From: Candidatus Aldehydirespirator sp.
GTDB taxonomy: Bacteria; Actinomycetota; Acidimicrobiia; Acidimicrobiales; Aldehydirespiratoraceae
Direction of reading: 5' to 3'
DNA length: 64,000 nt
Assembly: GCA_965203575.1 (NCBI GenBank)
Contig: OZ241894.1
Span: 3,724,322-3,788,321, forward strand
In this document: positions 8,045 to 22,049 of the stretch, piece by piece
Layout: each line of letters opens with the position of its first letter
Numbering within the stretch: position 1 is the first letter of the stretch
Program-made: the position numbers and the translations under genes
The notes under the pieces: model-generated
What the model saw: the letters and a program-made list of their open reading frames with translations, nothing else
Database searches by the model: none
Told to the model about the DNA's origin: nothing

Positions 8045-9841
8045 TCAGGGGGCTCCGGCGGCTGATCCGGCCCATATGAGGGGATCGGGGGCGGTCTGGT
8101 CGAGGATCATCGAGACGGCGGCGTATTCGGCCGGCGTGCCGTCGGCGAGTTGTGTGGGGATGCTGCGCACTTCGGTGTGCTCGAAGGTGGACAGCATCAG
8201 CGTCACCGGGGTCGGCTCGATCACGTCGATGACGGCTCCCGATGGGTCCACATACGCCGCGTAGACCGCCAGTTCGTCGACGCGGGCCGCGGCGACCGCC
8301 GCGGCGAGGCGCGGGTGAGACACCGGCGCTTGATGCTCGATCTCCACCGTGACGCTGTCGTAGGGGCCCGACTCGGGGATCTCGCCGGCGACCCAGCGGT
8401 GCTCGGGCTCGGGGTCGCGGTCGATGCTGGTCGTGTAGCGGGTGTAGTTCATGTGCAGCGAGCGGGTCACATCGATCGTCGGGGACAGGTCCGCTGACAC
8501 CTCGAAGCCGATGTCTGACGGGGCCGCCGATCCCGCCCATTGCTCGATCTCGAAGGGCAGGACCTCGCCGGGCTGCACCGCCAGCGGGAACCGCCACACC
8601 CCTTCGCCGCCGGCTGGGTCCGCGGCCTCGACCACGACGTCTCGGGCCCACAGCGACCGCGACCGGTTCTGGGCCAGGCCCCGCAGCACACCGCCGGCCA
8701 CGCTCACCGTCTCCGCCAGAACCTCCAGCGAGTCCACCGGCGCCCCCACCGCGAAAGCAGGCCCCGCATAGCCCATAGGACTCTCCGGCGGCGCCGCCGA
8801 AGTGCCGCCGCCGGAGTCCCGCAGCCCGCGGTAGGCGTCCACCGCGGCGGCCGCGGACGCCTCCGCTGGGGTCGGGCCGAGGTGGGTGACATACACATAG
8901 CGGCCTGCGGCGGCCTGCGCGGCGGCGCACTCCACGCCGTCGGCCGCCCGCGCCTCGACAACAGCCTGCATGGCCCCGGCGCCGATCGCCATCGCGTGGT
9001 CGATCCCGCCCGGAGCCCACTCCGCGGGCGCGCCGCTGTAGGCCACCAGCGCCTCATGGTCGTCGCAGACGTCGAGCACCTCGCCCACCCACCGGCCCCA
9101 CCTGGGATCGGGATGGCCCCACCGCGACCACAGCCGGCCCCCCTCCCCCAGCGCAGATGACGACTCCACACCCCCACACAGCGGCCCGGGCCAACCGCAC
9201 GGACCCGCCGCGTCCAACGCCGCCACATCAGCGCCGGCATCATCACAGAGCCGGCCCGCCTTGCACCGCAACAACAAACGACCCCCCACCACAACCCGAT
9301 CCCCCACCACCCGAGCGGCCGCCGGACCGCCGTCGGCGGTGGTGCCCGGCACCCCCGCACCCAAATCCGGGACCCCTACGCCCGGCACCCCCGCACCCAA
9401 ATCCGGCACACCGGGACAATCCCCCGGCGCGCACACCCTCGCCGACCGCCCAGACAAGCCCTCACCCGCACCCAGATCAGGCACACCCCCAGACGACACC
9501 ACACCCCCCACCCCCGAAACACCGCCACCATCAGACACCGCATCCACACCGCCGCCCCCACCAGACACCGCACCCGGAGCCTGCCCCGACCCCGCACCGC
9601 CGCCCCCACCAGACACCGCACCCGAACCGCCCGAAACCGCCTCGCCACTCACATCGGGCGCCTGCCCCGACCCCACACCCCCGTCCGCTCCAGACACCGC
9701 ACCCGAACCGCCCGAAACCGCACCGGCGCCGGACGGCCGCGCCCCGGGCCCACCCCCACAACCACAAACCACAAGCACCGCCGCCGAGACCGCAGCCAAA
9801 AGCCTCAACAACACCCCAACCCCGCCAAGATCACCCATCAT
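8045..9841 (-). CDS. lipoprotein with Gly/Ser/Val-rich low-complexity linker and an uncharacterised C-terminal domain
   Basis: Start placed at MMGDLGGVGVLLRLLAAVSAAVLVVCGCGG (signal peptide plus lipobox-like VVC). Its ATG overlaps the stop of the upstream pilin-like gene (ATGA). The low-complexity region has GAVSGG and VPDLGAG repeats. Confidence 0.6.
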   Translation of the reverse strand: MMGDLGGVGVLLRLLAAVSAAVLVVCGCGGGPGARPSGAGAVSGGSGAVSGADGGVGSGQAPDVSGEAVSGGSGAVSGGGGGAGSGQAPGAVSGGGGGVDAVSDGGGVSGVGGVVSSGGVPDLGAGEGLSGRSARVCAPGDCPGVPDLGAGVPGVGVPDLGAGVPGTTADGGPAAARVVGDRVVVGGRLLLRCKAGRLCDDAGADVAALDAAGPCGWPGPLCGGVESSSALGEGGRLWSRWGHPDPRWGRWVGEVLDVCDDHEALVAYSGAPAEWAPGGIDHAMAIGAGAMQAVVEARAADGVECAAAQAAAGRYVYVTHLGPTPAEASAAAAVDAYRGLRDSGGGTSAAPPESPMGYAGPAFAVGAPVDSLEVLAETVSVAGGVLRGLAQNRSRSLWARDVVVEAADPAGGEGVWRFPLAVQPGEVLPFEIEQWAGSAAPSDIGFEVSADLSPTIDVTRSLHMNYTRYTTSIDRDPEPEHRWVAGEIPESGPYDSVTVEIEHQAPVSHPRLAAAVAAARVDELAVYAAYVDPSGAVIDVIEPTPVTLMLSTFEHTEVRSIPTQLADGTPAEYAAVSMILDQTAPDPLIWAGSAAGAP

Positions 9842-10357
9842 TCCAGATTGCACGCCGGCGTCACGTCCCAGCCACCGCCGGGCTGCTTCAGCGTGCCCTC
9901 GTGGACCTTCACCGTCCGCGCAATGTCCGAATAGATCACACCCAACTGGCGGCACCTCGCCCCGTAGGCGCCGTTGATACGAACAACATCCTCCGCCGTC
10001 GCCGGCGTCTCCGCCGCCCAGCGCCGCTCCAGGTCGGTCGCCGCCAGATCAGCCGCCTGCTGACGGGCACTGTGGGACTCCACCTGCTCAGCAGTGCCGC
10101 CAACCACACCCTGCACCCCCACCACCGCCAACGCCGCCAAACCCGCCACCGCAGCCACCACCAACAACCACTCCAACGACGTCAACCCCGCCTCGCCGCG
10201 CTCGTCGCGACACACCCGCCGAACCGACCCCCTCAGGGATAACTCACCCCCTCACCCCGCGCGCACCCCTCGGGATCCTCCGCCTCCATGCACTGCCGGC
10301 GCACATAGTCCTGATAAGGCTGATTCACACTGTTCTCATAATCCAACGGCACAACCA
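9822..10357. repeat. 536-bp segmental repeat, copy 1 (pilin-like gene plus 3' end of lipoprotein gene); partner at 15209-15743
   Basis: Near-identical sequence by direct comparison of the two stretches. The encoded 125-aa proteins are identical. Confidence 0.9.
9838..10215 (-). CDS. pilin-like protein (Flp/TadE-type class III signal-like N-terminus), copy 1
   Basis: 125 aa. MCRDERGEAG/LTSLEWLLVVAAVAGLAALAVVG has Gly, then Glu at +5 followed by an aromatic residue and a hydrophobic helix, as in Flp/Tad prepilins. The C-terminal 80 aa have two Cys. Confidence 0.5.
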   Translation of the reverse strand: MCRDERGEAGLTSLEWLLVVAAVAGLAALAVVGVQGVVGGTAEQVESHSARQQAADLAATDLERRWAAETPATAEDVVRINGAYGARCRQLGVIYSDIARTVKVHEGTLKQPGGGWDVTPACNLE

Positions 10358-11099
10358 TCTCAGGATTGTCCCGCATCCACAAACGCAGAAACTCCAGATA
10401 ATAGTCACGGCGTGTCTTCAACAACTCGTCACGATACTCACGATCCAACGAAGGATACGATGCCGCAAACTTGTGGCACTCATGTTGGAAGTCGTCAAAA
10501 TCATCCCCAGTCATGCCATACTGCTCCTGATAGGATTCGAACATCTCTGCCGAAATAAGATAGTACCCATCATCGTAGTAATATAGCCTTATGTCTGGCC
10601 ACCGCGACTGTGTGCTGCACAAGTCCAGCGAGTCATAGAACGCGTCGCGGAGGAGGCTTACAGCCCGTTCAACCTTCGGCGGCATGGCCTCACTAGCCCC
10701 GAAGAACACGAGTTTGACAACCTGCTCGAAGTGGTCGCGGTCGCGCGCCTCAGGGCTGAGCGACCGGAAGTCTTCGCTCATGACCGCCTCCTCTTCAGCC
10801 GCTCGACGCTCCTCGAATGTCCGGTAGCGCGCCAGAGCCGAGCCGAACCGGTTGGAGATATACTCGTTCACAAGATGATCTACACCGATCTCCTCCTCCG
10901 TGTACCCGCCAAACTTCACACCTTGCGTGCTGCCAGCAGTGCCTTGGGCCTCTGGTGATGCTGACACTCCTTCTGTCGGACTGTTCGCATCGCTGCATGA
11001 CACTGCCAACACGACAACCAACCCGACCAGCACAGTCCATATCCACAGCCATCTTGACGGCGATCGAAGCGCTCTAGAATGCACAGCACTATACCTCAT
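10233..11099 (-). CDS. lipoprotein, candidate immunity protein for the PLA2-like toxin (family member 1)
   Basis: Start placed at MRYSAVHSRALRSPSRWLWIWTVLVGLVVVLAVSCSD (lipobox AVSC). The ATG lies 11 nt inside the 3' end of the toxin gene. The C-terminal block HECHKFAASYPSLDREYRDELLKTRRDYYLEFLRLWMRDNPEMVVPLDYENSVNQPYQDYVRRQCMEAEDPEGCARGEGVSYP recurs after every toxin cassette. Confidence 0.6.
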   Translation of the reverse strand: MRYSAVHSRALRSPSRWLWIWTVLVGLVVVLAVSCSDANSPTEGVSASPEAQGTAGSTQGVKFGGYTEEEIGVDHLVNEYISNRFGSALARYRTFEERRAAEEEAVMSEDFRSLSPEARDRDHFEQVVKLVFFGASEAMPPKVERAVSLLRDAFYDSLDLCSTQSRWPDIRLYYYDDGYYLISAEMFESYQEQYGMTGDDFDDFQHECHKFAASYPSLDREYRDELLKTRRDYYLEFLRLWMRDNPEMVVPLDYENSVNQPYQDYVRRQCMEAEDPEGCARGEGVSYP

Positions 11100-21154: not shown

Positions 21155-21195
21155 ACTCGTTCGCTCCTCAGCACGCCTCATCGCACTCCCCTATC

Positions 21196-21687
21196 CTAGA
21201 CTTGATTGGGCTCGTAGCTGACGAACGGTAAGGGATAGGCTGAGACTCCCCAGAAGATAGTGTTCGCAGCGTCTCTGCAATCGTAAATGTATGAGTCGGA
21301 GACTTGCCAACTGAAGTACGTAGTTTCTGTCCTTGAAGAACCGGGACTCGCGTTGCACAGTTCGAGCAAGTCGTCACGCAGACGGATGTCTGCGTTCACT
21401 CGTGTGGACAGATTCCAGGCACCGGTGTGTTTGAGGTGGTGCTCGACTCTGTAGAGGTTTCGCCAGTTGAAGTCGTGGCGCATGCAGGCGAAAACGAACA
21501 TGACCTTCTGGCCGCCGAACACCGGCTCATCCCTAAGGTATGGAGCCAGATACAGCAGTCTGGCTACCGGGAACGGCAGCGGCGATGTCACGCCTATCGA
21601 CCTGAGCCACTTGGTCACTTCCGCCGGCCCCTTGACCAGCGACTCGGCCACCCCATACAACAGCAGCCGCGACCCGCGCCGGGCCAT
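21196..21687 (-). CDS. chimeric ORF: main-toxin start region fused to a truncated PLA2-like toxin tip (probably a recombination relic)
   Basis: MARRGSRLLLYGVA|ESLVKGPAEVTKW...FACMRHDFNWRNLYRVEHHLKHTGAWNLSTRVNADIRLRDDLLELC.... The first 14 aa match the main toxin, but with a 10-codon deletion that removes the hydrophobic core of the signal peptide. The junction then joins the cassette after the ITDRCSIP block. Confidence 0.45.
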   Translation of the reverse strand: MARRGSRLLLYGVAESLVKGPAEVTKWLRSIGVTSPLPFPVARLLYLAPYLRDEPVFGGQKVMFVFACMRHDFNWRNLYRVEHHLKHTGAWNLSTRVNADIRLRDDLLELCNASPGSSRTETTYFSWQVSDSYIYDCRDAANTIFWGVSAYPLPFVSYEPNQV

Positions 21688-22049
21688 CACACCCACCGCC
21701 GCAGCACCACGCCACAACCCTCAAACAACGGCTCCCCGCCCCCCCCCCCGGCGGGCACGGCAAATCGCCGCCGCCGAACTCAACACCGGCCGCCGGCAGC
21801 GCGGCCCAACCCCAAGAGCCCACCACTCACCGGAGGCCCCCATGCTGCGGTTGTCGCTCCCTGCGGCGACCATGGCGAACGACCCTAGCAGCAGAACAAG
21901 CCTCACATCCCTAGGAGAGTGTTGAGCAACACGGGTTTCTGGCTGCTGGGTTTGCTGGGGTGGCGCGGTGGTTGTGTGGGTGTGGTGGTTGTGTTGGGGG
22001 TTGTTCGGCTCAGGCGGGTGCGCCGGGGGGTGCGGGCGCGGCGCCCGGT
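21646..22049. repeat. segmental repeat, copy 2 (partner of 14716-15148)
   Basis: See copy 1. The right edge abuts a truncated transposase gene. Confidence 0.9.

Follow-up and report, generated by a model that had tools for sequence, protein, structure and literature searches.

A likely polymorphic toxin-immunity locus with a phospholipase A2-type tip and lipoprotein partners in Candidatus Aldehydirespirator

Within a 64,000-nt stretch of Candidatus Aldehydirespirator sp. (contig OZ241894.1 of assembly GCA_965203575.1, positions 3,724,322 to 3,788,321; here called the window), we studied a locus at 9822-22049 that encodes a large protein with an N-terminal export signal and a phospholipase A2 (PLA2)-like C-terminal domain, hereafter the tip, together with several lipoproteins and additional tip-lipoprotein cassettes. 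We consider it likely that the locus is a polymorphic toxin-immunity system in which a PLA2-tipped exported toxin is paired with cognate lipoproteins. The original prediction for this DNA, made from its letters without database searches, had proposed a polymorphic toxin exported in the manner of the general secretory (Sec) pathway, with a PLA2 warhead, cognate lipoproteins and recombining orphan cassettes, and this predicted system is supported by every computational test that we ran. All coordinates are positions in the window, which has a guanine plus cytosine (GC) content of about 72%, and all relevant genes lie on the minus strand.

The full-length toxin is encoded by an open reading frame (ORF) at 14787-11089 (minus strand), whose product of 1232 amino acids is present in identical form in a public protein collection. 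As the prediction had stated, its C-terminus carries TDRCSIP, ACMRHDFNWRNLY and FNEDLKRLC, and its TAG stop codon is overlapped by the ATG of the gene for lipoprotein 1 (ATGAGGTATAG), whose lipobox reads LAVSC. The assignment of the tip to a PLA2 family was likewise borne out. The C-terminal ~220 amino acids (tip 1) scored 29.5 bits against PF09056 within the full protein and 32.0 bits in isolation (E value 2e-7), above the gathering threshold of 29.4. PF09056 was the sole Pfam match of the full-length protein and was also matched by 14 of the 17 members of the tip family. A phmmer search of the PDB with tip 1 returned PLA2 structures only (7ygk, 8k1w, 1faz and 4aup; E values 1e-4 to 1e-3), aligned over CxRHDF...D..DL..C. 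A profile search of the PDB with the tip alignment gave an E value of 0.012, weaker than the single-sequence search, and was probably diluted by long gappy N-terminal columns. In a Foldseek search with a low-confidence AlphaFold2 (AF2) model of the tip (mean predicted local distance difference test score, pLDDT, 59; predicted template modelling score, pTM, 0.59), the sole credible match was again a PLA2, that of Tuber (4aup_A; E value 0.012, probability 1.00, template modelling score 0.53 for the target and 0.30 for the query).

The sequence motifs point in the same direction. The DxC[ST] calcium-loop motif occurs as TDRCS in tips 1, 2 and 3 and has been lost from tip 4 through a deletion, and CMRHDFNWRN corresponds to the catalytic motif CxxHxxxYxN with W in place of Y. 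In an alignment of the 17 tips, the C, R, H, D, F, N, W and R of CxRHDFNWR are invariant, AD..DL..LC is conserved, and the residues C125, R127, H128, D129, D163, C168 and C194 do not vary; the equivalent of the second catalytic Asp is found in 15 of them. Relative to solved PLA2 structures, the tip contains an insertion of ~45 amino acids between the DxCS loop and the catalytic His. Judged by its sequence, tip 1 is thus a member of the group-XIV-type PLA2 family (PF09056). It shares its catalytic motifs and Cys pattern with the secreted PLA2 of Streptomyces violaceoruber and fungi (group XIV; 1faz/1kp4, 4aup), which provided the only sequence and fold matches in the PDB, but here the domain forms the tip of a 1232-residue protein, carries the insertion and is paired with a lipoprotein. 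The group XIV enzymes of Streptomyces and fungi are stand-alone secreted proteins of ~120 amino acids, and we know of no immunity partner for them.

Export of the toxin probably depends on an N-terminal Sec signal: by eye and by hydropathy, the N-terminus (MARRRSRRWVLVLVAASVLLYGVAGF) consists of a basic n-region followed by a hydrophobic stretch with a Kyte-Doolittle mean of up to 2.4. The body that follows contains 36 cysteines, mostly in regularly spaced pairs, and six to seven proline/threonine (PT)-rich repeats of 12 amino acids, which derive from 36-nt tandem repeats at 13640-13927.

The toxin gene is part of a tandem duplication with near-identical ends that spans 9822-22049. The end repeats 9822-10362 and 15209-15749 are 98-99% identical, and the two promoter/5' regions, 14766-15148 and 21666-22049, are 99% identical. 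Read along the minus strand, the order runs from promoter copy A through a signal-peptide/tip 4 fusion, lipoprotein 4, a body fragment, tip 3, lipoprotein 3, a further body fragment, the split tip 2, lipoprotein 2, a 3' remnant of a type-1 lipoprotein gene, a TadE-like gene, promoter copy B, the full-length toxin and lipoprotein 1 to a second TadE-like gene. The features are as follows.

21666-22049, minus strand: promoter/5' region copy A, 99% identical to 14766-15148, with a G11 tract at 21739-21749.
21196-21687, minus strand: remnant of a second toxin gene copy (tip 4), in which a start codon with a truncated signal peptide (MARRGSRLLLYGVA) runs straight into the middle of tip 4.
20312-21181, minus strand: lipoprotein 4, lipobox LACS, intact ORF, ribosome-binding motif GGGGAG.
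20165-20263, with a second copy at 18439-18537, minus strand: toxin body fragment of 95-99 nt (VTVGETLSRRF...), shifted by one base relative to the reading frame of tip 3.
19468-20130, minus strand: orphan tip 3, a complete PLA2-like domain (TDRCS, CMRHDFNWRN, AD..DL..C) with no signal peptide.
18586-19452, minus strand: lipoprotein 3, lipobox FACS, with AAGGAG 6 nt 5' of its GTG start.
17975-18404, minus strand: 5' part of orphan tip 2, 99% tip-3-like up to the RHDFNWRN codons, then type 2 (L001-like, KHFFG).
16735-17974, minus strand: insertion sequence (IS) of the IS3 family with 24-nt inverted repeats, orfA at 17928-17638 and orfB at 17641-16766.
16582-16734, minus strand: 3' remainder of orphan tip 2 (..DWTLSRASVDKCEIVSAAFKLGV..INYSH, then stop), with ~30 codons including the catalytic Asp block gone.
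15816-16556, minus strand: lipoprotein 2, lipobox GACS, a divergent type-2 partner with 66% identity to the lipoprotein that follows the type-2 tip of L001.
15209-15749, minus strand: terminal repeat, 98% identical to 9822-10362, with a type-1 lipoprotein 3' remnant at 15563-15749 and a complete TadE-like gene (125 amino acids) at 15225-15602.
14766-15148, minus strand: promoter/5' region copy B, with a G10 tract at 14839-14848.
11089-14787, minus strand: full-length toxin of 1232 amino acids, with, from the N- to the C-terminus, a predicted signal or anchor at about residues 1-38, Cys-rich repeats, PT-rich repeats, Ig-like/PPC-like domains and tip 1 at ~11089-11750.
10233-11099, minus strand: lipoprotein 1, lipobox AVSC (LAVSC), its ATG overlapping the toxin stop by 11 nt.
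9822-10362, minus strand: terminal repeat copy, including the TadE-like gene 9838-10215.

The three further tip-lipoprotein units that had been predicted at a period of approximately 1.73 kb lie at 21717-20312, 20130-18586 and 18404-15816, with start-to-start distances of 1726 and 1728 bp. Alignments of unit 2 with unit 3 and of unit 3 with unit 4 extend over 1930 nt at 87% identity (bit score 2327), far above chance. The units had been described as orphans lying simply upstream of the toxin gene; this placement has to be corrected, since they stand downstream of a second, duplicated promoter and gene start from which the body has been deleted, and they are therefore downstream cassettes in the classical order. 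Tip 4 is the N-terminus of this second gene copy (MARRGSRLLLYGVA|ESLVKG), from which an internal deletion took the whole body and the TDRCS loop, and it is probably inactive because the calcium-loop motif is gone. Tip 2 is split by the IS3-family element of 1240 bp, and ~30 codons (~90 nt) of the neighbouring tip sequence are missing. As had been claimed, the middle tips begin right after an in-frame stop and lack signal peptides; tip 3 has no start codon either. Judged from these lesions, all three extra tips of this genome are inactive, one being truncated, one IS-disrupted and one without start or signal. A promoter and terminator scan gave counts no greater than in shuffled sequence, and no tRNA gene that could mark a genomic island was present in the window.

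All four local lipoprotein ORFs are intact and have lipoboxes (AVSC, GACS, FACS and LACS for lipoproteins 1 to 4), read from the sequence against the pattern [LVI][ASTVI][GAS]C, and seven partner lipoproteins from other loci have similar lipoboxes. Shine-Dalgarno-like motifs precede the starts of lipoprotein 3 (AAGGAG) and lipoprotein 4 (GGGGAG). The lipoprotein family comprises 45 clusters. Its AF2 model is all-helical (pLDDT 73); a fold search of the PDB with this model yielded nothing better than an E value of 2.7, and no hidden Markov model (HMM) or fold match was obtained to known immunity families (the Pfam Imm families, DUF576/TilA and Tli).

Only 10 homologues of the toxin body were detectable, and they carry at least three unrelated C-terminal domains, namely a PLA2-type domain in P0001, P0003 and P0010, an HPGVGLWQLD-type domain in P0002, P0004, P0007 and P0009, and a third type in P0005. 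Since like bodies bear unrelated tips, the toxin family is polymorphic. PPC, He_PIG and fn3 were the only Pfam domains found in the body homologues. A search of 1.84 billion representative proteins with the tip gave 63 clusters. Full-length matches, in proteins that reach 1554 amino acids, carry the tip at or close to their C-terminus, and many of the members are short. When one genome of each species was scanned, 10 loci were identified, all of them in Acidimicrobiia metagenome-assembled genomes (MAGs): Acidimicrobiaceae APA_bin_7 and CAR4_bin_4, Ca. Aldehydirespirator and Ca. Poriferisodalis. The isolate and taxon names (APA_bin, CAR4_bin, Ca. Poriferisodalis) suggest that the related loci originate from sponges. 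The order of tip followed by lipoprotein recurs in seven of the related loci (L001, L003, L004, L005, L007, L009 and L011). L003 shows the classical order of body-tip-lipoprotein, tip-lipoprotein, tip-lipoprotein and a lipoprotein 3' remnant, and related arrays occur in L004, L005, L007 and L009. Orphan tip/lipoprotein cassettes are present in the window as well as in L003, L004, L005 and L007, and extra lipoprotein genes without a tip in L001, L006 and L007.

Two side observations concern the body family. The alternative C-terminal domain of P0002, P0004, P0007 and P0009 comprises ~300 amino acids, has the motif HW(S/H)PGVG(L/P)WQ(L/M)D and matches no Pfam family; this HPGVGLWQLD-type domain is presumably a second toxin domain. 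In the linker region of L001 (8684-9421) there are five repeats of ~140-170 nt, compared with near-perfect 36-nt tandem repeats in the window, which indicates that linker length varies among relatives.

We then compared tips and lipoproteins as pairs. Across 11 adjacent pairs, identity in the C-terminal part of the tip correlated with lipoprotein identity (Mantel r=0.75, p=5e-5), and the correlation was lower for the N-terminal half of the tip (r=0.49). In tips of the KHFFG type, the next gene is always of the lipoprotein-2 type. This tracking of lipoprotein type by tip type, together with the adjacency that recurs elsewhere, agrees with the proposal that the lipoproteins would be cognate partners of the tips. 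The claim that the first ~230 bp of the tip are highly conserved also held, with 85-98% identity to the full-length gene over the first ~200-230 nt.

Sliding identity between units 3 and 4 revealed a mosaic: it is 98-100% in the middle of the tip, falls to 39-80% in a stretch that starts immediately past the catalytic motif and reaches two thirds into the lipoprotein gene, and returns to 97-100% in the last ~330 nt. Lipoproteins 3 and 4 show a synonymous divergence (dS) of 0.69 ahead of the HEC motif and of 0.00 beyond it, and lipoproteins 1 and 3 one of 2.4 and then 0.13. The ratio of nonsynonymous to synonymous divergence (dN/dS) in the variable parts of the lipoproteins is 0.23-0.49. Tip 2 is chimeric, its 5' 400 nt being 99% tip 3 and its type switching inside the RHDFNWRN codons to the tip type of L001. 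L001 itself shares the downstream flank of the window (80-86% nucleotide identity), and its full-length gene bears a type-2 tip, followed by lipoprotein-2-like and lipoprotein-4-like genes. Base composition changes at the same place: the C-terminal parts of the tips and the lipoprotein genes (10200-11400, 15800-16600 and 18600-21400) have 52-61% GC, the body and the rest of the window 70-75%, and this step coincides with the recombination module. For the exchanged module itself the GC content is 52-56%, compared with ~72% for the body and the wider window. Uniform divergence of tandem duplicates in situ as the sole explanation is ruled out by dS values of 0.00 and 0.69 within one gene pair. 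On these comparisons, we read the variable modules as having diverged as functional genes and the flanks as having recently recombined or been converted.

The proposed array of orphan cassettes that swap tips by recombination is supported by mosaic identity, the dS breaks, the chimeric tip 2 and the different tip in L001, with the correction that all three extra tips are inactive in this genome. As for the ~90-bp TVGETLSRRF segment that had been proposed as a homology handle, a 95-nt piece of the body (12457-12548) does occur twice more, at 18439-18530 and 20165-20256, with 90.5% identity, but its frame is offset by one base from that of the orphan tip ORF, and we therefore rejected it as a working handle and regard it as a relic.

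Based on these findings, we propose the following working model. The exported toxin would act on neighbouring cells from the outer face of their cytoplasmic membrane, whose phospholipids it would hydrolyse, with the stalk (Cys-rich repeats, PT-rich linker and Ig/PPC-like domains) presenting or releasing the PLA2 domain. The lipoprotein, anchored on the outer face, would bind and block the variable C-terminal third of the PLA2 domain and thereby protect the producer and its kin. In the history that we envisage, a unit of promoter, toxin, lipoprotein and TadE-like gene was duplicated in tandem, and in the upstream copy, which carried two downstream orphan cassettes, the body was subsequently deleted and an IS inserted. 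This copy has kept its promoter, start codon and three lipoprotein genes intact and is probably now an expressed set of spare immunity genes with silent tip fragments; promoter copy A, 99% identical to copy B, probably expresses lipoproteins 4 and 3 as spare immunity. New toxin/immunity pairs would arise by homologous recombination between two conserved flanks, one being the tip's 5' portion as far as the invariant RHDFNWRN codons and the other the final ~330 nt of the lipoprotein gene. The module of low GC content swapped in this way would comprise the C-terminal ~85 amino acids of the tip and the N-terminal ~190 amino acids of the lipoprotein, and the silent tips may donate specificity via such crossovers.

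Several results weigh against a toxin-immunity system. Of the 110 positions of the PF09056 profile, only 43-90 are matched, with a score just above the threshold, and orphan tips 2-4 remain below it at 16-21 bits. The partial coverage is explained by the ~45-residue insertion, and the insertion-less relatives P0003 and P0010 align to PF09056 from HMM position 21-22. The fold match of the tip is weak because its AF2 model is poor (pLDDT 59). Pfam and NCBIfam scans covering lipoproteins, body and neighbours returned no informative family apart from PLA2 and the IS. Among 19 members of the lipoprotein family a Pfam scan found no match, and NCBIfam yielded none; since no known family or fold is matched, the immunity role of the lipoprotein rests on its position and on co-variation, and simple linkage would also produce adjacency and co-variation of tip and lipoprotein. 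With three defective spare tips and a 95-nt handle that is out of frame, present-day switching at this locus is doubtful. With respect to export, the SRRWVLV motif in the toxin N-terminus is also compatible with the twin-arginine translocation (Tat) pathway, and a conserved YG(L/V)AGF motif past the hydrophobic stretch could mean an uncleaved anchor. Finally, the target could be eukaryotic membranes, those of a sponge host, instead of bacteria.

This last point leads to the explanation that we rank as the main rival, and that we nevertheless consider unlikely: the PLA2-tipped protein would be directed at a host, at prey or at nutrients, acting on membranes of the sponge or other eukaryotes or on dissolved lipids, with the lipoprotein as a self-protecting inhibitor or folding helper and the variation driven by the host. 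It gains from the occurrence of all related loci in Acidimicrobiia MAGs with names suggesting sponge origin and from the adhesin-like Ig, PPC and Cys-rich repeats of the stalk; to our knowledge, moreover, no role as an antibacterial toxin is known for the secreted PLA2 of the PF09056 family from Streptomyces and fungi. A mere self-inhibitor, however, need not accumulate in several diverged copies. The locus also displays hallmarks of interbacterial systems (PMC3482391), that is, unrelated C-terminal domains on one body, spare lipoproteins without a tip, tight co-variation and cassette recombination.

The state of the spare tips raises another question, whether the array is non-functional debris, a tandem-duplicated pair decaying by deletion, IS insertion and frame disruption, with flanks kept alike by gene conversion without adaptive switching and with extra lipoproteins that have no role. 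Such decay would fit the truncated tip 4, the IS-disrupted tip 2 with ~30 codons gone, tip 3 without start or signal and the out-of-frame handle, and the 98-99% identical direct repeats that bound the region are typical of a recent tandem duplication. It does not sit well with four intact lipoprotein ORFs with lipoboxes, Shine-Dalgarno-like motifs before lipoproteins 3 and 4 and a lipoprotein 1 ATG that overlaps the toxin stop; the dN/dS of 0.23-0.49 in the variable parts is not ~1, divergence within a unit is strongly non-uniform (dS 0.00 vs 0.69), several genomes contain comparable arrays of differing cassette content, and the contig with the shared downstream flank bears another tip on its full-length gene. 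We judge debris to be a decidedly unlikely account. It is highly improbable, in turn, that the tip is no active phospholipase but a binding module or pseudo-enzyme derived from a PLA2 and borne by a surface adhesin, with the lipoprotein as membrane receptor or docking partner. The ~45-residue insertion between DxCS and the His, the partial Pfam alignment, the W for the motif Y and the low-confidence structural model could be taken in this sense, whereas the invariance of C125, R127, H128, D129, D163, C168 and C194 in 17 tips, with the second catalytic Asp in 15 of 17, is the pattern expected of an active enzyme.

Reading the locus as a polymorphic toxin-immunity system, we asked how it relates to systems already described. 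Tox-PLA2 domains (DxC[ST], CxxHxxxYxN; PDB 1kp4) are known from polymorphic toxins of many phyla including Actinobacteria, with export by the general secretory route ('T2SS') (Zhang, de Souza, Anantharaman, Iyer & Aravind 2012, PMC3482391). That study gives no immunity protein for Tox-PLA2, lists only RHS or ALF repeats as bodies and notes just one family of lipoproteins, Imm65, among all the immunity proteins collected. The statement that the present combination had not been described was therefore overstated, as Tox-PLA2 on Sec-exported toxins, including those of Actinobacteria, is on record there, without an immunity protein. The locus resembles these toxins in its C-terminal PLA2-family domain with both motifs on a multidomain exported protein and in its diversification by recombination with standalone cassettes; it differs in its body of Cys-rich repeats, PT linker and Ig/PPC domains, in the W for Y, in the ~45-residue insertion and in the dedicated family of lipoprotein partners.

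Contact-dependent growth inhibition (CDI; CdiA-CT/CdiI) and Rhs orphan arrays of Proteobacteria share with the locus the arrangement of a full-length gene followed by promoter-less tip and immunity cassettes with a homology stretch, and the replacement of tips among related strains. In contrast to them, the host here is presumably a monoderm actinobacterium, the immunity protein is extracytoplasmic, and the observed crossover falls within the toxin domain, at its catalytic motif, which confines the swap to the C-terminal third. Membership in CDI was rejected, as no two-partner secretion (TPS) domain or FHA repeats were found in the Pfam scan, no CdiB-like neighbour and no VENN motif in the sequence. 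Membership among Rhs/YD-repeat proteins, including WapA, was rejected as well, with no RHS/YD Pfam match and no PxxxxDPxGL demarcation. WapA/WapI is a Sec-exported polymorphic toxin of Gram-positive bacteria in which WapA has YD repeats, and umbrella toxins need ALF repeats and UmbA/UmbB partners; neither ALF repeats nor these partners were found here, which excludes the umbrella toxins. For the LXG/WXG toxins of type VII secretion systems (T7SS), the N-terminus with its basic and hydrophobic signal, the lack of an LXG match and the metabolic neighbours led us to reject membership. No genes of type VI secretion systems (T6SS), T7SS or TPS adjoin the locus, its neighbours being metabolic genes.

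With WapA/WapI, ABP (PMC13460014) and umbrella toxins the system shares a multidomain protein exported by means of a signal peptide, with exchangeable C-terminal toxins. ABP systems are Sec-exported polymorphic toxins of Gram-positive bacteria with an adjacent, co-secreted serine protease and a cytoplasmic immunity protein (PMC13460014). Membership in this group (AbpT/AbpP/AbpI) was rejected, since the locus has no protease gene and its partner is a lipoprotein. Further parallels are the Tle/Tli pairs of T6SS and TslA/TilA of the Staphylococcus aureus T7SS (PMC10730906), in which a lipase toxin is neutralised by lipoproteins whose genes stand in tandem in varying numbers. As inferred from sequence, the locus would correspond to these in having a phospholipase A toxin that acts on the membrane from outside, a membrane-anchored lipoprotein that neutralises it, and tandem copies. 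It differs in that Tle and TslA are alpha/beta-hydrolase GxSxG lipases delivered by T6SS or T7SS, whereas here a His-Asp, calcium-dependent PLA2 fold is predicted behind an N-terminal signal peptide; the lipoprotein is all-helical in its model and shows no similarity to DUF576 or any Pfam family. A literature search found nothing on Poriferisodalis, on polymorphic toxins of sponge Acidimicrobiia or on PF09056 as a toxin.

The type of system is hence already known, and what is new is confined to the family of the lipoprotein partners, the way the body is built, the lineage with its habitat, and the position of the crossover within a domain. The all-helical lipoprotein family, which has no Pfam, NCBIfam or PDB relative, provides a candidate immunity partner for Tox-PLA2. 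Cassettes appear to be exchanged within the enzyme domain, at its most conserved codons, which predicts the surface of the PLA2 that is recognised by the immunity protein. The locus would also extend interbacterial weaponry to Acidimicrobiia that have not been cultivated and that, by the names of their MAGs, belong to sponge microbiomes, a setting in which little is known of how bacteria compete. If the model is true, the pairs would make up a compact set of PLA2 enzymes, each with a protein inhibitor to match, for use as tools.

A further feature lies upstream of the toxin start. A run of 10-11 G on the coding strand is located ~20-60 nt 5' of it in both local copies (14839-14848 and 21739-21749), and the two tracts differ by one base (G10 vs G11) within flanks that are 99% identical. 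Runs of G11 also precede the full-length toxin ORF in two diverged relatives (L001 7763-7773, L003 6593-6603), where they are almost the sole conserved upstream element. Long G runs are otherwise nearly absent, with three of at least 8 nt in 64 kb and two of at least 9 nt in ~190 kb of loci. The G10-11 tract may be a phase-variation tract that changes by slipped-strand mispairing. We also considered a more far-reaching version of the model, which we regard as doubtful. It would make the locus a member of an unrecognised class of Sec-exported, possibly surface-anchored and contact-dependent PLA2 toxin systems in Acidimicrobiia, which probably live as symbionts of sponges. Specificity would be set by an exchangeable module smaller than a domain (the final third of the PLA2 and the first two thirds of the new all-helical lipoprotein, with crossovers at the catalytic-motif codons), decayed copies would be kept as expressed immunity banks, and expression would be phase-variable via the G10-11 tract.

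Several minor observations concern the remaining genes. The orfA and orfB products of the IS3-family element at 16735-17974 contain HTH_Tnp_1 and rve domains. The TadE-like genes 9838-10215 and 15225-15602 are identical and encode 125 amino acids with a TadE/pilin-like N-terminus (LTSLEWLLVVAAVAGLAAL); the product has a weak, sub-threshold match to TIGR03816 (Rv3654c-family TadE-like protein). The gene belongs to the duplicated unit and is also conserved beside the L001 locus. Downstream of the locus, 8045-~9850 (minus strand) encodes a large Gly/Ser/Val/Pro-rich protein with a possible lipobox (LVVCGC), which matches no Pfam or NCBIfam family and has 81% identity to the L001 product in the syntenic position. 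In both the window (15563-15749) and L003 (15186-15346), a short leftover of the 3' end of a type-1 lipoprotein gene comes after the type-2 lipoprotein gene that closes the array, and this shared remnant suggests an old, common displacement event.

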